Both the position numbers and the translations under genes were made by a program. The notes under the pieces are model-generated. The model had not been told where the DNA came from. It ran no database searches and saw only the letters and a list, made by a program, of their open reading frames with translations. A stretch of DNA of 62,387 nucleotides, filler included. It is 7 parts of 7 records of this genome, joined end to end, with 100 filler letters (N's around TTAATTAATTAA, not from the genome) between each part and the next. Parts side by side here need not be neighbours in the genome. Positions count along the whole stretch, not along the records: positions 1 to 8,486 come from DRR723986_25171; 6 more parts are not named here. The stretch is one strand, 5' to 3'. Below, piece by piece: positions 1-54,243 of the stretch; position 1 is the stretch's first letter; each line of letters opens with the position of its first letter.

Positions 1-560
1 CTGGGCTTGCTGACTGGAACGGGTGCGAGCAGACAGAAGTGTATAGTTCCAGCACGTTAAATGTATTTGCCTTGAGTTGCATGTGTGTACGATCGCAAAT
101 TGTAGGTGGGGGCTACTACAAACCCCAAGTCTCACAGACTGTGGTTGGCGGAGCTCCCAAGCTAGGTTAATGAAGTAATCGCTAACCGGCCGGCAGCAAT
201 ACGTTGCGGAGTACGAACTTGTTATCACTTACCAAGCTTTGTGCGTTACCCGCTAATGAAGTTAGCTGTGCGCTTGACGTGTTGTGTAATTTTCAGTGCT
301 GCGCAGAGGTGTTAAGTGCCCGCCGGCTTGGGGTGGACTGTTTGTTCGGAGCTCTCGGGATAGAGGTGAAAAGTCTTGTGCCGCAGAGGTTGGCGGCTGA
401 TGACTCAGATGTTAACAAAAAAGAAACAAACAAGCCGCTCACCAGAGGTGAAGGCGAAGTGCTCATGGCTGGTGTTGCAAATGCAGGAAATGTTAACTGC
501 CTTTGAGTTGCCCAAATGTGTTAGCGAATATCGTAAATGGTCGGTTAACAGTTCGATGTG

Positions 561-3107
561 TTAATAACGGTATAATACCAGTCGTGCCCAACGGAGCGGA
601 TGTGCCAGACGTTCCTGGGCGATAAATTTGCGACGTGTCTCGGTCAGAGCTTTTGTTAACTGTTCCGGTTGATGTGCGGCTGCACTTAAAGATTGTAAAA
701 ACTCAAATGAGAATGCGGTGGAGGCGTTCCAGAGTGAAAATGCCGTGTGTCCGCTGCTGCGTGTCTGGACGGCGCTGAGAAATGCACCGACTGAGATGGC
801 GTCCGGAAGTTGGCCGTTGCGTAGGTCGCTGTAAGGAAAAAGCATGACGTTGGCCTGGGGGGCGTGAGCGCATAATTGGCGCAGGGTAAGGAAGCCGCTC
901 GTGTCAGTTGTGCCGGGGGCGAGGAGGATGCCGCTGTGTGCCGGCGCTGTTGGAACAAAGTTTGTGTGTGCCAGGTACGCTGCCAGGCCTGTGTCGTCCC
1001 GATTCTGCCCGTCGATTTTTGCGGGGGAGGCGTTACAAGCGCTAAAAATTTTGAGGTCGGCGTCATCCATTTCTACCTGATCACCAATCGCCTGTGCCTC
1101 GCGGGTCGCATAACGTAACGAGCGAGGGGTGCCGGAGGAAGTCAAAAAACGTGCACCGGCAGTTTTGCCAATTTGCTCGCGAAGTGCCTGTGCCTGACTT
1201 TGAGCCGAAATTTCTTCACAATTCAGCTCGCCGGAGCGGGCGGGCGAGATAAGTTGAACGGAAAGGTCGTTTTTGTCGATTGCCTGCGTGGGCGCAACAA
1301 AGTCGGCGGCGCAGTAGACATATTCAAATGTCAGGCGTTCGGCGGCGAACTGGAGCTGCGCAAGGTCACCCGGTTTTTCACGGCGACTGTCCGAACGCGC
1401 GGCCAAAGCACCGAAGGGAAGGGCAAAGAGCGTCGAGTCAGGCGAAATCAGGATTGTGTGCATGCGTTTGCTGTCGGCATGTACATGTTGTGCCAGGAGT
1501 GCCTGAAAGAGTGTGCGCAACGCAGTTGAAAGTCCCTCGGTCTTGCCGCTGCGCATAGCATTGTATGCCGTTGCTACAGATTGATTGACTTTATCGGTGA
1601 AGCGCGCGCGGCGGATCGAGAATTTACCCTCAAAGAATCGCGCGGTATAGATATGGCGTTCGGCGATGCTGAGATGCAGAAACAGACTGCTGTCACCAAG
1701 TTGGTCAAAAACAGACCTAATTGAAGGGGGTGATTTTCGAGAGAAAATGCGTGAGTAGCGCAAGTTCTGCTGCAGTGACGCCTGCAGCTGGATAAATTCC
1801 TGCGAAATTGCGGCTCTGGCCTGGCCATTTTTGGCTTGTATACTGGCATGTGCGCCGTCGATTGAGACGCGTTGGAGCTCGCGCAGTTCTGAGGGGAGTC
1901 CGGCATGGGCTGCGAGCGGCATGGTTTGCACGGCCGCACGCCAGTAGTTGAACTGCTTGCGTTCCTCGGCAGTGGCGAAACAGGCTTCGGCATGTGACTC
2001 AAGACCCGTTTCCTGATAGGCCAGGTAGGAGACGCCCAATGCACGCGCATACATGCGCCTGCCCAGTTCCTGCAAGAGCGGAAAGAGGCTGAAGGCATGC
2101 AGGCCCTGGCGCAGCACGTTAAAGTGTTCGCGTGCGCGCGTATACAAAATGTCGGCGCGCAGCAGATTGCGCACGTCGTGTGTTTCCAGATAAAAGAGCG
2201 ATAGATGAGTCTCGGCTTCCAGGCAGAGGCTCTGCACGTACTGCAGGCGCATGGGTGCATCAGCCAGTCGGTCGGTTTTGTCGTCCGTGATTGTCACGTC
2301 CTGCAGGTTGCGCACGTTTTCATCTTTTGCTGTGCGATACCAGCTGCTGAGGTGCTCCAGGTGGTCCAGCGCTCCGGCGAGTGTCTTGAGCTCCAGTTCG
2401 ACTTTGGCGGCCTGCAGGTGCAGGTTGCGCTTGCGGAAGGTTGTGGAAGCATCGTCCGGAGCAATTTGCAGGAGCGCGTTGATGCTGCGGCGCGCGCCAT
2501 CGGCATCATTGGCGTCGCGCTGGGCCAGGGCATGTGCCAGGGCGATGTCTTCGCCCGTCTGGCGCTGTGTGATTTGTGGAGTCTGACTGTCGGCAGCCAA
2601 ACGGTTCTCACGTGCCTGGACTGTCAGGCGGAGGGCGGCATCGGAGGCCTGTAACTGCGCTGCAACGGCAGCCCACAATAGACTTTGCTGCCAGGTGGAA
2701 ACGTGTGCCGGGGGCGTGCCTGAAGCCAGCTGCAGGTATGCGTCAAGAGACTGCCGCGAAGTCTTGTAGTCACCACAGGCGAGCCGCTCGATGACCTGTG
2801 CCGGCGGCTCGCTGCCGGGCTTGAAGTTGTTGGGCGGCGCATCATCTTTGTGGGCGCGCAAATGCTGCATGCGTGCAGAGACCAGAAGCTCCAGCGGCAA
2901 GTAGTCAAATGCGGAGTTGTAGTCCTGAATGTAGATGAGATCGGTCTGCGCCGCCGCTTGTGAAGGCAGGCTGAGCAGCCCACAGAAGCAGAGGAGCAGC
3001 CAAATGGCGCCGCTGATTTTGCCCGTTGAATGCTGGAAGGTCATGAGTGCCGTCAACCTGGTCTCTGAGTGTATGATTGAGTCTATGCTATTGTCAGCTT
3101 GAGGCAT
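561..3107 (-). CDS. Exported TPR/helical-repeat protein with C-terminal CHAT (caspase-like) domain, probably catalytically inactive
   Basis: Signal-like segment AIWLLLCFCGLLSLPSQAAAQ. CHAT motifs ILISPDSTLFALPFGAL, SGFLTLRQL, FSLW and HPLRWARLVL. The LSAC catalytic motif aligns to LFPYS. Alternative start at 3045. Confidence 0.8.
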   Translation of the reverse strand: MPQADNSIDSIIHSETRLTALMTFQHSTGKISGAIWLLLCFCGLLSLPSQAAAQTDLIYIQDYNSAFDYLPLELLVSARMQHLRAHKDDAPPNNFKPGSEPPAQVIERLACGDYKTSRQSLDAYLQLASGTPPAHVSTWQQSLLWAAVAAQLQASDAALRLTVQARENRLAADSQTPQITQRQTGEDIALAHALAQRDANDADGARRSINALLQIAPDDASTTFRKRNLHLQAAKVELELKTLAGALDHLEHLSSWYRTAKDENVRNLQDVTITDDKTDRLADAPMRLQYVQSLCLEAETHLSLFYLETHDVRNLLRADILYTRAREHFNVLRQGLHAFSLFPLLQELGRRMYARALGVSYLAYQETGLESHAEACFATAEERKQFNYWRAAVQTMPLAAHAGLPSELRELQRVSIDGAHASIQAKNGQARAAISQEFIQLQASLQQNLRYSRIFSRKSPPSIRSVFDQLGDSSLFLHLSIAERHIYTARFFEGKFSIRRARFTDKVNQSVATAYNAMRSGKTEGLSTALRTLFQALLAQHVHADSKRMHTILISPDSTLFALPFGALAARSDSRREKPGDLAQLQFAAERLTFEYVYCAADFVAPTQAIDKNDLSVQLISPARSGELNCEEISAQSQAQALREQIGKTAGARFLTSSGTPRSLRYATREAQAIGDQVEMDDADLKIFSACNASPAKIDGQNRDDTGLAAYLAHTNFVPTAPAHSGILLAPGTTDTSGFLTLRQLCAHAPQANVMLFPYSDLRNGQLPDAISVGAFLSAVQTRSSGHTAFSLWNASTAFSFEFLQSLSAAAHQPEQLTKALTETRRKFIAQERLAHPLRWARLVLYRY

Positions 3108-4647
3108 CGACGTTTTTCAGCTGTTTTAAGCGTTCGAGCACAAACTGCCAGAGGACTTCGAAGGGGATAATCTCCGTGACTTCCAGCACTGGGTTGGAGC
3201 CACCGGTGTGGTCCCGCAGTCTTTCATACAGCTTAGCAGTTTTTGTTTTGGTTTTCGTGTAGTTGAAATCCTGATTGATCATGGTGCGCAGCATGCGCAG
3301 GAAGGTGTTGGTTCTGGCGTATTCATCGTGCCGCAGGTAACGACTGCTGTACTGCCTGATGGTTTCGGCGTGGTCGAGAATAGCTAGCAGATCACCTTTA
3401 TCCAGCAGAAACAGGATGTGCACAATCAAGATCGGCACGTAGGTCCCACGCTTGTCGTTCTGGTAGATTGGGACTTCATTAAGGAATTTGTAGAGGTTAA
3501 AGCGCTTCTGGAATACCGTGGTTTCGTCGGCCAATTCTACCGCTTCGGAGTGTGCCAGAACGTAACGCAGGAAGGCTTCCAGAATGCGCCAGCGTTCATG
3601 TATTTGCGGTATGGTACGCGCAAATTTCTTATCGCCGGTTACGGCCAGGAAAATCTCAGTTGCCTGCTGATAATTGCCGGTGTGCAGGCAGAGGTGAATT
3701 AGCAGTTCGTTAAAGAGGAACCAGTTGGCCTCACCGCCCTTGTACAGGTCCTTCAGCGCCTTTTGTGCCAGGTTGTAGCCATTGCGGAAGTCGCGCAGGA
3801 AGATGAAGGCGTTCATCTTGGTTGCTGCGATTTCACGTTGGCGTTGTTTGTTGGAGAAGTGCGGATTCTCACGGTAATACTCATCCATTTTATCGCAATA
3901 TGCCAGGGTGAGTTGATAGTCTCTGGCAATCTGATGTTGCATGATCTGCATTCTGAAGTATGTCTGATTCAGCGTTCTGGAGTTGTACTGATCGCGCAGC
4001 TCGCGGATGCGTTCGGTGGATTCGTGGGCGCGTTCAATAACGGCAGCATCAAAGTTGAAGGAGCGGGAGCGCGAGAATTCGATCGTCAATTCGGTCCAGA
4101 GCCTGTCGGCCTCAATTTCGGCATTATAGATCGAGAGATAATGCTGCACGCTGGCGGCAATTTTCTGAAACTCTGCGCGGCGCCCGGCAATCACGGACTG
4201 GCGTTGCAGGAGCAGGGCACATTCAAGGGTGATGGAGGTCAGGTGGTACTTTTCGGCTTTGCGTCTGGCTTTGCCGATAAGTTCGAGGCCTGTTCGGCGT
4301 GCGCCCATGAGCAGTAGGATGCGTGCACGCAGGATGTTCTTCTGGCAGTACATGGTCATGTGGAAAATCGTACCGAAATCGTGCTGGCGCAGATCGGCAT
4401 TCAGCAGGGTTGAGAGCAGCAGTTCTCTGAGACGTGATTTAAGCGTGGTGTAGCGTACATCACCCGGGGAGCTGTTATAGAGGGCCCTGGCGGCTTCTTC
4501 ATCGTCCTTGAACTCATTGGCCACGACCCCGTCAAACAGACGTTCATAATAGGTGTCGGAAGACTTGCGCTGTCCGCGGCCAAAAATCTTGGATTTGCGG
4601 ATGCCCAATGATGTAAGGATTTTAGTGATTTCGGAAATCGATTTCAT
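3094..4647 (-). CDS. 517-aa hypothetical all-helical (TPR-like) protein with a possible N-terminal HTH-like segment
   Basis: Long ORF with amphipathic helical pattern and no signal peptide. N-terminal DDEEAARALYNSSPGDVRYTTLKSRLRELL. Overlaps the CHAT ORF by 14 nt. Confidence 0.75.
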   Translation of the reverse strand: MKSISEITKILTSLGIRKSKIFGRGQRKSSDTYYERLFDGVVANEFKDDEEAARALYNSSPGDVRYTTLKSRLRELLLSTLLNADLRQHDFGTIFHMTMYCQKNILRARILLLMGARRTGLELIGKARRKAEKYHLTSITLECALLLQRQSVIAGRRAEFQKIAASVQHYLSIYNAEIEADRLWTELTIEFSRSRSFNFDAAVIERAHESTERIRELRDQYNSRTLNQTYFRMQIMQHQIARDYQLTLAYCDKMDEYYRENPHFSNKQRQREIAATKMNAFIFLRDFRNGYNLAQKALKDLYKGGEANWFLFNELLIHLCLHTGNYQQATEIFLAVTGDKKFARTIPQIHERWRILEAFLRYVLAHSEAVELADETTVFQKRFNLYKFLNEVPIYQNDKRGTYVPILIVHILFLLDKGDLLAILDHAETIRQYSSRYLRHDEYARTNTFLRMLRTMINQDFNYTKTKTKTAKLYERLRDHTGGSNPVLEVTEIIPFEVLWQFVLERLKQLKNVDASS

Positions 4648-5128
4648 GCGGATCTTGGCTTTACAGGCCGAATGTTGGCGGTTTTGGAAGGCGACGGATC
4701 AGCTAATTGCCAAAAAACAGATGTAAAAATTCGTGCCTTTATGATACCAAAATAGGGCGCATAATAGCATAGATTGCACTCATAAGCAACGGAAATCATC
4801 CGTATAGCGCAGTTCTACTGCGATTGTTCGCCGCCGAAAATGCTTGTTGTCTGTGACGCAAGTAAAAGCAAGAAAAAAGTAAAAGGCGAAATCGAATGAT
4901 GTGATTCTAGAGGATATTTCCGAACGCTTTTTTCTGATCGATTCTAGGTTGCTTTAGGCTATAAGCCGTGGTTCATTGAAAACTTGAAGTATTGAGCGTT
5001 ATTGAGGAGTAAAATTCCGATGTAAGAATGCATGTGGATTTGATACTCATTTAGCGAAGAAGGCTGGTTACATTCGTACTGTGTTTATCGTGCCTGTCGA
5101 ACCAACATTTCTTCTTCCGAGGTTTATA

Positions 5129-5347
5129 ATGGAACCGATTATTCTGGCAATCATGCTTTTTCTCTCATATATCGTAAGTCCTGGACAGTACCACCCAGTT
5201 GAGATCGAAAATATTTATCAGTCAAACGAGCAGACAATTCACGCTGTGCAAGCTGACCCTGAATTGATGCAAATCGTTGAAACTGATCATCTGCCCGAGG
5301 TGGAGTTTATCTTGGTAGATTACTCGCAGTTCGATGAAGGACTGTAA
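5129..5347 (+). CDS. Small (72 aa) exported or membrane-anchored acidic protein
   Basis: GAGGT upstream of ATG 5129. Hydrophobic N-terminus MEPIILAIMLFLSYIVSPG followed by an acidic tail. A hairpin follows the stop. Confidence 0.65.
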   Translation: MEPIILAIMLFLSYIVSPGQYHPVEIENIYQSNEQTIHAVQADPELMQIVETDHLPEVEFILVDYSQFDEGL

Positions 5348-5399
5348 GGTATACCTTCCAAGGTGAACAGAAGCGCCAATGGAATATCCATTGTGTGGG

Positions 5400-5421
5400 C
5401 CGGCTTGTCTAAACAAGCCGG
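5400..5421 (+). terminator. Hairpin after the small ORF (terminator or processing stem)
   Basis: CCGGCTTGT-CTAA-ACAAGCCGG, a perfect 9-bp stem with no U-tract. Confidence 0.4.
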
Positions 5422-5470
5422 GACGCAAGACGGATAAGGTGGGTAGATTCTCTTATTGAAAATTCGACTA

Positions 5471-5815
5471 AGTGCCAGAATACGACTGTGATAGGGGCGC
5501 CTACGTGGATTACCACGTATTACATTAGGGGACGGTTGAATTGCGTAGGCGTTCTATCAATTTTATGGCAAACTGAAAATAGAAACGGTACGCTCCGTAC
5601 GCCGACTTGGATAGTGCTATCTGTTTCCTGAAATAAGGTGCGGAACCTGTTCAGTGTTGAATTGTACGAAACGTACCGTTACTGAAAGCTTTCTCAAGCG
5701 AAAGGCTTGATCTGAAATAGTGCCGAAATACGACTTGGATAGTGCTGTCTGACGCCAGTCACTACTGCGCCTAATGCCACCGGGCACACAGCGGAGGACA
5801 GACTATCTTTTTTTT
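5471..5815 (+). ncRNA. Candidate structured ncRNA made of three related stem-closed units
   Basis: Shared CGACT(TG/GT)GATAG in three units, GTTGAATTG twice, three long closing stems with G-U pairs on the + strand, and a final T-tract. Confidence 0.5.
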
Positions 5816-6932
5816 GTTGTCGTGTTAAGACGAGTTGAAAATATTGATTATATATGGAATTGTAAAAGAAAAATCGCTTTCGAGTGATTTATTTTACGTG
5901 AGATAGCGCCCAAACTTCCACTCTAAGCTCAAAAATCACCGCAAATACAAAAGTTATGTCAAAATAAATGCCTTGAATGTTACCGCACACCCAAATTCTG
6001 CACGTTTTTTGATGTTTCACATATGAAATGGCACAAGGTGTTGTGGATTCTGCGTTGTTTTTCGGGGCTTTAAGGGCTGTTATAGCCGTTTGAATTGATG
6101 TTCTTATTGTGATGTTTTAGATAAGGATGTGCACAGTTCAGTGCCATTTTCACGTAAAAAAGCCTCGAAATCGCGATAAATTCCCGTTTTGTGAACTTCT
6201 GTAATTGCTGCGTGTTTCAAATCGTAACACCGAATGTGAACGTACAGAAAAGTTTGCTGCTAATCTTGCTTCACCACTTTAATGCAAGTCTATCAGCCGA
6301 ATTTTGCATTAGGCAGCGTGTTACCGAAAGCGCAAAAGTGCTTGTGTGGCAATCGCGTATTTTGCGTTTATTTGTAGCAGGTATACTTCGAATGTGATTT
6401 GCAGGCCGATAGCCACATGCCAATGCCGCCCATGTGATTTGCCCTGCAGGAACGAACTCGCTGCTACGGCGTAACAAAACTAACTGATACCTCTTGTTAT
6501 TACTATAGACATTGACGATTATGGCAGCACATTACCTGCACCCGGAGCGAAGCCCGTGGTCACGATTCTGAAGCAAGAAATAATCGGCGAAAAACTTCTG
6601 GAGAGACTGACTATACGCAAACCTTTTACTTCCGGATTTGTAATGGTATTAGAGATTACAAGCATTCGTTGAATTCAGCCAAACTATGCTTAATTCAACA
6701 GCGTCTCAGTAAGTGTGTTTGCTCCTGATGGCGGTGCGTCAATGAAAATTGGCGTGCCGCTTCTTTTTTGTGGCATTTCCTGCAACTTTCCCTTCATCTT
6801 TGCATATTCTGAGCCCGGTCTTTTTTGTACTTTTGCACTGTATTAAAGCGGTCTGAGTCTACGTAGCTCAGCAGGTCACGCGCCGGAGTTACCCGGCGGA
6901 TTCGATTACACTCTTTTGGATAGCTCGTCGAA

Positions 6933-7976
6933 ATGTTCGAAATGTTCGACATGGTGGATCTGGGGCGCGCCGAGCTCCTGTACGGATTGATTGCACTACC
7001 AATTCTGGTTGTGATGTATGTGCTGGGTAGCCTGCTGCGGCGCCGGCGCTTGCGCAAATTGGGCGACCCCGCACTCGTGCGTGGATTGCAGGTCGGTGTT
7101 TCCAAAGGGCGGCGCCGTTTTAAGCTATTGCTGCTCGTCTTTGGACTGATGTTCCTCGTGCTGGCAGCCAGTCAACCGCGCATAGGAACCGCTCTGCGCG
7201 AAGTCAAGCGTGAGGGCGTTGATATCATGATTGCATTGGATGTTTCCAACAGTATGATGGCCGAAGACATACTGCCAAATCGTCTGGAGCGTTCGCGTGG
7301 AGCAATCTCGCGCCTTATCGACCAGCTTGGGACTGACCGGATTGGCGTGATTGCCTTTGCTGGGGACGCATTTATTCTGCTCCCACTGACTTCGGACTAT
7401 GCATCTGCCAAACTATTCGTCAGCACCATGGATACTCGCATTGTTTCAACACAGGGTACAGAGTTGGGCGCTGCCGTTTCCCTGGCCCGCGAAGCATTTG
7501 AGACCGAAGAGACGAAGTACAAAGCGCTCATTATTATTACCGATGGCGAAAATCACGACGCCGAAGCCCTTGCCGAAGCCGAAAAAGCACATGCCGAAGG
7601 TGTTGTGATTCATACGATCGGCATGGGCTCCGCAGATGGTGTTCCCATTCCGCGCTTTCGCAATGGAGTCCGTGCCGGTTTCCATACCGATAATGCCGGA
7701 AATGTTGTCGTCTCAAAACTCAATGAAAGTTTTCTGCGTCAATTGGCAGGTTCTGCTGACGGTACTTACATCCGCGCCACCAGTTCGGATGCGGGCCTGC
7801 AAACTATTCTTGACCAGATTGAGTCGATGGAGAAAAAAGAATTTGAAACGCGTGAGTTCAGCGACTATGAAGAGCGTTTTCAACTATTCCTTGCTGCTGC
7901 TTTTATTCTGATGCTTTTTGAAGCATTTGTTGGCAATCGCCGCAAACAGGCCAAAACAGGAGCCGAATCGCTATGA
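6933..7976 (+). CDS. batB: VWA-domain membrane protein, BatB-like
   Basis: N-terminal TM helices, MIDAS motif ALDVSNSM, IAFAGDA, IIITDGENH, C-terminal TM helix. Confidence 0.8.
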   Translation: MFEMFDMVDLGRAELLYGLIALPILVVMYVLGSLLRRRRLRKLGDPALVRGLQVGVSKGRRRFKLLLLVFGLMFLVLAASQPRIGTALREVKREGVDIMIALDVSNSMMAEDILPNRLERSRGAISRLIDQLGTDRIGVIAFAGDAFILLPLTSDYASAKLFVSTMDTRIVSTQGTELGAAVSLAREAFETEETKYKALIIITDGENHDAEALAEAEKAHAEGVVIHTIGMGSADGVPIPRFRNGVRAGFHTDNAGNVVVSKLNESFLRQLAGSADGTYIRATSSDAGLQTILDQIESMEKKEFETREFSDYEERFQLFLAAAFILMLFEAFVGNRRKQAKTGAESL

Positions 7977-8486
7977 GACCAGAAGTTAACATGCCGGGCC
8001 GTTTTTTTGGGCTGCAAGTCTTGCTGCTGTTCTGCTGTGTTTTGTTTGCCGGACAGACGCAGGCCGCAGCCCAGGATGCGCGTGAATTGGTGCAGGACGG
8101 CAACAAAGAGTTTTTTGAAGGTAATTACACGACGGCTGAAACGCGCTACCGGCGTGCAGGCCAGGTCGACTCCAGCGCAACTTCACCTGTGGTGCCCTTT
8201 AATCTGGGCGGTGCGCTTTTCCGCCAGGAGCGTTTTGCAGAGTCCATAGAACAATTTGATGAAGTCATTGCACATGTGGATGCTACCGAAGAACAGCGCG
8301 CCGCTGCCTGGTACAATCACGGCAATGCACACTTGGGCATGGAGGACTATGCCAAAGCGATTGATTCCTATAAGCAGGCCCTGCGCCTGAACCCCGCTGA
8401 TCAGGATGCCAAACACAACCTGGCCTGGGCGCAAAAGAAACTGCGGGAACAACAGCAAGACCAGGAGAATCAAGACCAAAACGGCG
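7973..8486 (+). CDS. batC: TPR protein, BatC-like (truncated by contig end)
   Basis: Signal peptide, TPR motif AWYNHGNAH..AIDSYKQALRLNP.DQDAKHNL and Gln-rich tail. Follows the batB-like gene. Confidence 0.7.
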
Positions 8487-8586
8487 NNNNNNNNNNNNNN
8501 NNNNNNNNNNNNNNNNNNNNNNNNNNNNNNTTAATTAATTAANNNNNNNNNNNNNNNNNNNNNNNNNNNNNNNNNNNNNNNNNNNN
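8487..8586. other. Artificial contig spacer
   Basis: N-run containing TTAATTAATTAA. Confidence 0.99.
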
Positions 8587-8638
8587 GAAAGTGGGTCTGC
8601 GCAAAGCGCGTAAGCGTCCGCAGTACTCCAAGCGTTAA
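8587..8638 (+). CDS. rpsI: 30S ribosomal protein S9, 3' end
   Basis: Translates to KVGLRKARKRPQYSKR*, the conserved S9 C-terminus. Confidence 0.95.
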
Positions 8639-8658
8639 TCGACGTTCAGTCGATTTGG

Positions 8659-8689
8659 AAAAACCCGGTCTTGTGGCCGGGTTTTTTTA
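8659..8689 (+). terminator. Rho-independent terminator after rpsI
   Basis: AAAACCCGGTC-TTGT-GGCCGGGTTTTTTT. Confidence 0.85.
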
Positions 8690-8876
8690 TATCTGTACTC
8701 CGGAAATATTTTTGATCTGGCGCAGGGATAGGCTCGCCTGCCGACCTTTCCGGCTTGTAAGCGGGGGGTAATTTCATTACCATTTCAGCGCTTATATTTT
8801 TGGGTTGTGAAGTCCTTTTCGAAGCGCAGTGCCGGTTTTTCCGCGTCTGTGCCTCGCCTGATGGGAGAAAACCATA

Positions 8877-9470
8877 ATGAGTAATGGCGACGTGAGCCAA
8901 GGCCGGCGCCGGTTTCTGATCGGTGCTACGTCTGTGGTAGGTGGTGTCGGCGTCGTCGGTGCAGCCGTTCCTTTCGTAGCGTCCTGGAACCCCAGTGCGA
9001 AAGCGGAAGCGGCCGGTGCACCGGTAACCGTCAATATCAGCAAAATCGAACCGGGTCAGCAAATCACCGTTGAGTGGCGAGGTAAGCCTGTTTGGATTAT
9101 CCGCAGAACGGAAGAAATGCTGGCGAATATCGAGAAGCTCAATGACGCAGTGAAGGACCCGATGTCGGAGGCGCCTCAGCAGCCTTCGTATATCCAGGGT
9201 CCCTTGCGCGCGATCAAGCCAGAGTTCGGTGTCTATGTGGGGCTCTGTACCCATCTGGGCTGCGTGCCCTCCTACCGGCCAGAGGTTGCGCCGGCTGATC
9301 TGGGTGAAAATTGGCTTGGTGGGTTGTTCTGCCCGTGTCACGGTTCCCGCTATGACATGGCCGGTCGGGTTTATGAGGCTCAACCCGCGCCGCTGAACCT
9401 TGAGGTTCCGCCGTACCGGTTTGACGATGATGTGACCATGACCATTGGTCTTGATCCGGAGGCCGCGTGA
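8877..9470 (+). CDS. petA: Ubiquinol-cytochrome c reductase Rieske Fe-S subunit
   Basis: Tat motif GRRRFL. Rieske boxes CTHLGC and CPCHGS. Confidence 0.97.
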   Translation: MSNGDVSQGRRRFLIGATSVVGGVGVVGAAVPFVASWNPSAKAEAAGAPVTVNISKIEPGQQITVEWRGKPVWIIRRTEEMLANIEKLNDAVKDPMSEAPQQPSYIQGPLRAIKPEFGVYVGLCTHLGCVPSYRPEVAPADLGENWLGGLFCPCHGSRYDMAGRVYEAQPAPLNLEVPPYRFDDDVTMTIGLDPEAA

Positions 9471-16730: not shown

Positions 16731-16830
16731 NNNNNNNNNNNNNNNNNNNNNNNNNNNNNNNNNNNNNNNNNNNNTTAATTAATTAANNNNNNNNNNNNNN
16801 NNNNNNNNNNNNNNNNNNNNNNNNNNNNNN
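16731..16830. other. Artificial contig spacer
   Basis: N-run containing TTAATTAATTAA. Confidence 0.99.
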
Positions 16831-27073: not shown

Positions 27074-27173
27074 NNNNNNNNNNNNNNNNNNNNNNNNNNN
27101 NNNNNNNNNNNNNNNNNTTAATTAATTAANNNNNNNNNNNNNNNNNNNNNNNNNNNNNNNNNNNNNNNNNNNN
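27074..27173. other. Artificial contig spacer
   Basis: N-run containing TTAATTAATTAA. Confidence 0.99.
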
Positions 27174-35317: not shown

Positions 35318-35417
35318 NNNNNNNNNNNNNNNNNNNNNNNNNNNNNNNNNNNNNNNNNNNNTTAATTAATTAANNNNNNNNNNNNNNNNNNNNNNNNNNN
35401 NNNNNNNNNNNNNNNNN
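35318..35417. other. Artificial contig spacer
   Basis: N-run containing TTAATTAATTAA. Confidence 0.99.
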
Positions 35418-42863: not shown

Positions 42864-42963
42864 NNNNNNNNNNNNNNNNNNNNNNNNNNNNNNNNNNNNN
42901 NNNNNNNTTAATTAATTAANNNNNNNNNNNNNNNNNNNNNNNNNNNNNNNNNNNNNNNNNNNN
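42864..42963. other. Artificial contig spacer
   Basis: N-run containing TTAATTAATTAA. Confidence 0.99.
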
Positions 42964-54143: not shown

Positions 54144-54243
54144 NNNNNNNNNNNNNNNNNNNNNNNNNNNNNNNNNNNNNNNNNNNNTTAATTAATTAAN
54201 NNNNNNNNNNNNNNNNNNNNNNNNNNNNNNNNNNNNNNNNNNN
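54144..54243. other. Artificial contig spacer
   Basis: N-run containing TTAATTAATTAA. Confidence 0.99.

Follow-up and report, generated by a model that had tools for sequence, protein, structure and literature searches.

A tandem cluster of three sibling structured RNAs, probably trans-acting small RNA genes, in an uncultured bacterium of FCB type known here from a short contig

The window, that is, the whole 62,387-nucleotide stretch of DNA analyzed here (filler included), consists of seven contigs joined by runs of N around a TTAATTAATTAA linker, with the joins at positions 8487-8586, 16731-16830, 27074-27173, 35318-35417, 42864-42963, and 54144-54243. Only the first contig (positions 1-8486) was syntenic with three related genomes, G001, G002, and G004. 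The shared segment comprises, in this order, genes for a CHAT protein and a 517-aa protein, a 72-aa ORF, an array of structured RNA units, and genes for BatB and BatC. The later pieces carried either proteobacterial-type genes (Rieske_proteo, SspB, and LppC) or low-GC T9SS genes, and their products matched the best homologues in the three relatives at 26 to 29% (cytochrome b) and 38 to 39% (MurE). The bin looks mixed, and nothing beyond position 8486 was therefore usable as genomic context. The host is an uncultured FCB-type bacterium represented by a short contig. An FCB-like lineage had been proposed from the letters of the window, and it is upheld by at least 150 matches to T9SS sorting tails in each of the three related genomes. 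In G001 (L134, G001:C71:77239-80394), the one genome examined for this arrangement, fliW and motB are followed immediately by csrA, and the predicted gene content of the relatives describes a flagellated FCB-type bacterium.

On the minus strand, the gene for the 517-aa protein (positions 3094-4647) overlaps the start of the gene for the 848-aa CHAT protein (561-3107) by 14 nt. The 517-aa protein had no Pfam or NCBIfam match and belongs to a strongly expanded family; of 61 related genomes, 28 contained matches to it. Directly 5′ of the array and in the same orientation lies the 72-aa ORF (5129-5347, plus strand), whose product has a hydrophobic N terminus and an acidic tail. This ORF was kept in all four genomes, with 66 to 70% identity to G001 and G002 over the aligned parts and 38% to G004, and had no family match. 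In the window, a hairpin (5385-5436) is located between it and the array. A long ORF is absent from positions 5347-6932, and the ORFs that overlap the array are short and unconserved (47 aa on the plus strand and 56 aa on the minus strand). The full Bat cluster (BatB to BatE) was found 3′ of the array in the relatives. A second conserved sRNA-like element, comprising GGCGUCUCAGUAAGUGUGUUUGCUCCUGAU, a 13-bp hairpin (6731-6760), and a T-run, lies at positions 6700-6771 (plus strand), ∼160 nt upstream of batB. It was near-identical in the four genomes with only the hairpin loop varying (z = −2.99), and it had no Rfam match.

The array itself (positions 5471-5815, plus strand) is made up of three structured RNA units, U1, U2, and U3, of ∼95 to 125 nt (Table 1). 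All three were recognized in the window, G001, G002, and G004, and have the box and the closing stem in common. U1 (5471-5568) and U3 (5719-5815), each ∼95 nt long, are composed of an 18-nt unpaired 5′ box with the consensus AGUGCCRRAAUACGACUK, a long hairpin with a GAUAG/CUAUC foot, and a U-tract. U2 stands outside this simple box-hairpin-terminator scheme.

Table 1. Features of the array and their positions in the window
Feature	Position	Strand	Basis or remark
-10-like hexamer GAAAAT	5458..5463	+	7 nt before the U1 box; putative promoter element, read from sequence
U1 5′ box AGUGCCAGAAUACGACUG	5471..5488	+	Unpaired in centroid fold; proposed seed
U1 long hairpin, GAUAG.../...CUAUC foot, with G-U pairs	5489..5559	+	Folds; foot kept in G001, G002, and G004
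U1 U-tract AAUUUUAUG, degenerate (T4-A-T) in the window	5560..5568	+	
U2 rod-like hairpin, ∼105 nt, without a U-tract of its own	5579..5690	+	Rod spans 5580-5684 in folds
U2 box core CGACUUGGAUAG	5603-5614	+	Paired with CUGUUCAG-U-GUUG (5647-5659) in fold
U2-U3 linker hairpin UCAAGC-GAAAG-GCUUGA	5694..5710	+	Fold
U3 5′ box AGUGCCGAAAUACGACUU	5719..5736	+	Unpaired in MFE and centroid folds; proposed seed
U3 long hairpin (5737-5808) and T8 (5808-5815)	5737..5815	+	Intrinsic terminator, from folds
Four CUGAAA motifs	5573, 5628, 5682, 5712	+	Count and simulation

The initial annotation had been built on repeats and stems within the array, and these were reproduced. AGTGCCAGAATACGACTGTGATAG at position 5471 recurs with 20 of 24 nucleotides identical (83%; 5471-5494 versus 5719-5742), and CGACTTGGATAGTGCTATCTG at position 5603 recurs with 20 of 21 (95%; 5603-5623 versus 5731-5751). 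GTTGAATTG was confirmed at positions 5535 and 5656, as was the recurrence of CTGAAA, whose four copies were not reached in any of 20,000 simulations of the array (351 nt) under a first-order Markov model. Each long repeat motif was confined to its two sites within the window, even when up to three mismatches were allowed. At least two matches of these motifs were obtained in 3 and 5 of 100 window shuffles; taken by themselves, the repeats therefore exceed chance only modestly. The three stems that had been named, the third followed by T8, were all present in both the MFE and the centroid folds. In each of the six folded units of the U1, U3, and G004 U2 types, a long hairpin follows 18 initial nucleotides that are unpaired or nearly so.

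Compared with shuffled sequences, the fold energy of the whole 391 nt gave z-scores of −3.16 on the plus strand and −3.57 on the minus strand, and with such comparable values folding energy alone does not choose the strand. The plus strand is fixed instead by the U-tracts 3′ of the stems in the four genomes and by the G-U pairs within the stems. For single units, the z-score of U2 was −5.05 and was equaled by none of 200 shuffles; the scores for the window U1 (−1.53, equaled by 16 of 200 shuffles) and U3 (−1.95, equaled by 7 of 200) are weak. It is the comparative evidence, rather than the folding or repeat statistics, that raises the array above chance, and the comparison bore out the proposal of tandem small structured RNAs on the plus strand whose 5′ leader and closing stem are constant.

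BLAST identified the array in 3 of the 61 nearest genomes and in 3 of 254 genomes of the order to which G001 belongs, the carriers being G001, G002, and G004. Among at least 120 stretches of genome contigs that matched a degenerate 16-mer, one (L066, from G001) was a homologue by BLAST, and the other 119 listed were regarded as chance matches because the 16-mer pattern is too short. A covariance model search from the units, as the initial annotation had suggested, found the same carriers. The model, R1, was built from the U1/U3-type unit, and by construction it scores U3 of the window at 94.7 bits. Over 151 sampled genomes of the order, it identified the three carriers again, with its units at a single locus in each (two in G001, two in G002, and three in G004), together with one 22.5-bit match in G036 (L180 1501-1545, G036:C67). 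This match, AGTGCAAAAATACGACTGT, agrees with the box at 18 of 19 positions and was rejected as a score at chance level over 151 genomes; it coincides with the hairpin of a bidirectional terminator that separates two minus-strand genes in a more distantly related genome. When R1 was run over the loci of distant homologues of the 517-aa protein, nothing credible was found.

Searches of databases agreed with the earlier statement that the array is neither CRISPR, tRNA, nor a known Rfam family. At the gathering score, Rfam 15 returned no match across the whole window, and scanning of the window for tRNA and tmRNA genes identified none. The sole Rfam match with an E value of ≤10 in positions 4700-7000, DicF at 6361-6407, scored 14.4 bits against a cutoff of 48 and was dismissed as meaningless, and Rfam searches of five related loci gave only an irrelevant subthreshold S4 leader. 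JGI metagenome contigs contained no match to a 19-mer or to a gapped box-hairpin-T pattern, and no similarity to the array was detected in the viral contigs, plasmids, and phages searched. The box sequences were not found in print in the literature searched, the lone match being an unrelated quinoa paper. According to a 31-mer index of public runs, 6 to 30% of the sampled words of positions 5300-6000 are present in each of 22 runs, which come from 16 studies and include five RNA libraries, and further relatives of the array therefore exist in environmental data. The family is real, new, and narrowly distributed, and it is probably an ordinary kind of regulator.

Conservation was concentrated in the units. 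Between the window and G001 or G002, the units were 95 to 97% identical (U2, 95.5%), compared with 63% and 35% for the array linkers, 45 to 54% for the flanks, and 60% (308/515) and 80% (253/317) for the flanking proteins. In comparison with G004, U1 and U3 were 67 to 69% identical, the 517-aa protein 43%, and BatB 62%, and both units and linkers differed by indels of many lengths. Within the boxes, TGCCAGAATACGACTGTGATAG of U1 and AATACGACTTGGATAG of U3 were identical in all four genomes. In G004, the box was unchanged in U1 and U2, and the bases 5′ of AATACGACTTGGATAG differed in U3. The hairpin foot was also unchanged in G004, except for one substitution in the U3 3′ arm beside a bulge, and the apical parts had diverged. 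The 22-nt box, which does not vary among genomes or paralogues, had no further copies in G001 or G002. Two extra copies, with 1 and 3 mismatches, were present in G004, and reversed-pattern controls gave no matches.

The closing stem was assessed in an alignment (A5) of seven units from four genomes, three of which are close. Of its 77 cells, 96.1% were paired, compared with 34 to 49% when the partner columns were slid, and the covariation score of the stem was reached in none of 500 shuffles. In 3 of the 11 closing-stem pairs, both members differed when U1-type units were compared with U3-type units (G-U/U-A, C-G/U-A, and C-G/U-A). Very few independent events underlie these changes, in essence the single contrast of the two unit types, and covariation is accordingly supportive rather than decisive. 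The hairpin in the U2-U3 linker was replaced in G001 and G002 by other sequence that also forms a hairpin, GGAGCUGC...GCAGCUUCC. It was mostly deleted in one related metatranscriptome contig and is thus not essential.

Modest repeat statistics within the window, with 3 and 5 of 100 shuffles giving at least two matches, would also suit a repeat acting at the DNA level, such as an operator or promoter array or a mobile-element end, or chance similarity, rather than RNA genes. This is very improbable in view of the stem changes that preserve structure, the T-runs on one strand, and the conservation far above that of the flanks; in addition, the box is not dispersed, and phages, plasmids, and viral contigs showed no similarity.

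Terminators and possible promoters were compared across the four genomes. Each of the three G004 units, all of the simple type, ends in T6 to T8. The U1 tract is T7 in G001 and G002 and T8 in G004, so the broken U1 tract of the window is a local feature; U3 in G001 and G002 ends in T6 to T7. At a distance matching that of the window hexamer before U1, -10-like hexamers were identified before U1 of G001 (TATAAG) and before U1 (GATAGT), U2 (GAAAAT), and U3 (TAGAAT) of G004. Hexamers 7 nt 5′ of the box would fit the box as the 5′ end of the RNA, and putative transcription start sites can be placed there. A consensus promoter scan called none on the plus strand at the array. The presence of separate T-tracts, after every unit in G004 and after U1 in G001 and G002, points to separate genes.

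In the window lineage, U2 and U3 are probably carried on one transcript. A more extensive version of such an arrangement, in which the array would be a single structured transcript of ∼350 nt or a polycistronic precursor that is cut, at least in the window lineage, appears rather unlikely. The interrupted U-tract of U1 (T4-A-T), the absence of one from U2, and the absence of a -10-like hexamer at the usual distance from U3 in the window would all accord with it, and the length of the U2 rod would make it an apt substrate for RNase III, with CUGAAA at the unit junctions. Contigs from RNA libraries span U1-U2 and U2-U3 as well, although contigs are no proof of single transcripts. Such a precursor fits poorly, however, with G004, where each unit has its own T6 to T8 and -10-like hexamer, and with the T7 after U1 in G001 and G002. 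The linkers are also unconstrained (35 to 63%), one relative being without most of the U2-U3 linker hairpin.

A hint of expression, and the only one, came from metatranscriptomes. In three runs from three studies, short contigs of 93 to 261 nt fell wholly inside positions 5504-5815. Such contigs from RNA libraries show neither strand, ends, nor level, and one DNA run gave a similar short contig. Among the 22 runs, contigs were compared from three RNA runs and one DNA run, and these differed mainly at positions 5565-5577 and 5682-5725, which correspond to the two linkers and their edges.

U2 of the window type is homologous to U2 of G004, which is an ordinary box-hairpin-T7 unit; the two have in common CGACTTGGATAGTGCTRTCTGT and, further on, CTGAAAT. 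Compared with the G004 unit, the window-type U2 has acquired an outer stem and no longer has a terminator. It is a remodelled sibling with its box core enclosed by the rod, and it could serve as a masked copy, a decoy, or a processing substrate. Two of the CUGAAA motifs are in the linkers just 5′ of U2 and U3, one is in the U2 apical loop, and one is in the U2 3′ foot; these motifs are possible processing or protein-binding sites.

Taken together, the array is likely to be a tandem cluster of three paralogous sibling genes for trans-acting sRNAs, in which the 5′ box is the seed and the hairpin is the terminator. The exposed box of 18 to 22 nt, AGUGCCRRAAUACGACUKK(GAUAG), would pair in trans with target RNAs. 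The GAUAG/CUAUC hairpin foot and the U-tract would end transcription, with the hairpin protecting the 3′ end, and the differing apical parts could endow individual siblings with a particular stability or with additional contacts. Hfq was looked for in G001, G002, and G004 and was found in none of the three, and the RNAs would therefore work either unaided or with a different protein partner; small RRM_1 proteins were present in all three relatives, at one to three per genome. Against this reading, the search for targets gave none: sites complementary to the box at ≥19 of 22 positions were absent from G001 and G002, and a duplex scan of the box against positions 1-9000 of the window gave only background-level energies.

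At 22 nt, the conserved box is longer than a usual seed and could equally be a protein-binding site. The RNAs might then sequester a protein, with the box or hairpins binding CsrA or an RRM protein in place of pairing with mRNA. The length of the stretch, the presence of csrA in all three relatives, and the occurrence of UUGGAUAG in the U2 and U3 boxes would be compatible with this, and there is precedent in FopS and GibS, which bind the RRM protein RbpB (PMC11697453). For CsrA, however, GGA occurred seven times in 351 nt, and at least seven copies were obtained in 7,169 of 20,000 simulations; in addition, GUGA replaces GGA in the U1 box, and U1 of G004 is without any GGA. With GGA neither enriched nor present in the U1 box, a CsrA sponge is unlikely. 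Rfam gave no match to CsrB, CsrC, or Rsm. In organisms with a csrA-fliW arrangement, the FliW protein is a known CsrA antagonist, and the position of G001 csrA beside fliW and motB is of this kind. Overall, sequestration of a protein is considered an unlikely function of the array.

The constant scaffold and differing interiors of the units are superficially guide-like, and the array adjoins the divergently transcribed 517-aa/CHAT pair in all four genomes. The RNAs could on that basis be a guide or activator component of an adjoining 517-aa/CHAT-protease conflict system. Synteny says little here because the four genomes are too close. G001, G002, and G004 had 16, 13, and 10 places matching the 517-aa protein, respectively, versus a single locus for the RNA in each, and the RNA thus does not travel with this protein family. 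The initial annotation had read the interiors as variable in the manner of guides; they do differ among paralogues, yet they are 95 to 97% conserved between the window and its G001 and G002 orthologues, and that reading was not supported. A guide or activator role is accordingly regarded as scarcely credible.

The sRNA reading leaves room for a further lead, provided by one of the extra box copies in G004. This copy (21 of 22 positions; L151 1503-1524, minus strand, corresponding to G004:C94:76632-76653) occupies part of the ∼800-nt spacer that separates archease from rtcB, 14 kb away from the array, and is oriented against both genes. It has a different downstream hairpin, no GAUAG/CUAUC hairpin, and no -10-like hexamer before it. 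Because it is antisense to archease-rtcB, a transcript of the rtc genes would be almost perfectly complementary to the box at this site, and the spacer copy may be either a fourth remodelled sibling or a complementary target or sponge site on that transcript. The archease-rtcB pair is ∼15 kb from the array on the same contig in G001 and G004, and the gene pair is also present in G002. No box with up to three mismatches and no alignable site was found at archease-rtcB in G001 or G002, and Rfam gave no match on the archease-rtcB spacers. A duplex site of −20.4 kcal/mol upstream of rtcB in G001 and G002 was discarded as being at background level and not alignable with the G004 site. The 22-nt box could be imagined as a module that acts in recognition over its full length and is linked to RNA repair, rather than as a conventional short seed, with the spacer as its target or sponge and U2 of the window lineage as a masked or decoy copy freed by cleavage of the rod; the internal anti-box would hold the U2 box core until that cleavage. 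This is a speculative proposal that is quite unlikely to be correct.

To our knowledge, almost nothing has been established about regulatory RNAs in Hfq-less bacteria of the FCB group beyond gut Bacteroides. The array represents a comparatively supported sRNA family that is without a database entry and is confined to a few uncultured genomes. It is a candidate for a new Rfam family and for now a catalogue entry rather than a new principle. Its unusually long, invariant 5′ box, very long terminator hairpins, and single buried-box copy could help in studying how sibling sRNAs diversify.

Among known systems, the ToxI-like RNAs of type III toxin-antitoxin loci differ from the array, whose units are ∼95 to 125 nt and are not short repeats directly before a toxin gene. 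No ORF in the 1.1 kb downstream of the array was conserved among the four genomes, and a 195-aa ORF of G001 had no Pfam match and no counterpart in the window. The P1 c4 and P4 CI RNAs are cut from a longer transcript and resemble the array in being small stem-closed RNAs. The likeness to these phage RNAs raised in the initial annotation did not hold up: no phage genes are nearby, the neighbors being the CHAT and Bat genes, most array units carry their own terminator, and neither an Rfam match with an E value of ≤10 nor similarity to phage, plasmid, or viral sequences was obtained.

Closer parallels in architecture are found among sibling sRNAs, although the array belongs to none of these families by sequence or model. 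OmrA and OmrB are encoded by adjacent paralogous genes and are 80 to 90 nt long; they differ little over their first 21 nt, are conserved at the 3′ end, and diverge in between (PMC4211561). The array units likewise have their first 22 to 24 nt in common, together with the terminator hairpin foot, and differ in their interiors. In contrast to the Omr RNAs, the array comprises three units, of which U2 is a rod that buries its box, and has no sequence likeness or Rfam match to them; the Omr RNAs are also Hfq dependent, whereas the three array-bearing relatives have no Hfq. The same article describes the tandem PrrF1 and PrrF2 RNAs of Pseudomonas aeruginosa, where read-through of the first terminator gives a longer RNA, PrrH, that includes the spacer (PMC4211561). 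Sequence or structural homology to the array is absent, but on that account the broken U1 tract and the terminator-less U2 of the window suggest similar read-through products.

The final comparison is with FopS and GibS of Bacteroides thetaiotaomicron. The array differs from FopS in its box sequence and had no match in Rfam 15, either at the gathering score or at an E value of ≤10, and no link to susC or PUL genes was seen at the array. The array units are also tandem rather than present as 12 to 15 dispersed copies, and their hairpin is much longer (∼70 nt). FopS is described as a conserved 5′ single-stranded stretch followed by a terminator hairpin and as deposited in Rfam (PMC11697453). FopS and GibS resemble the array in forming a multicopy family, and their host likewise lacks Hfq and belongs to the same superphylum; RRM_1 proteins are present in all three relatives of the array-bearing lineage, and the FopS architecture of a 5′ single-stranded stretch and a terminator hairpin is found again in U1, in U3, and in the three units of G004.
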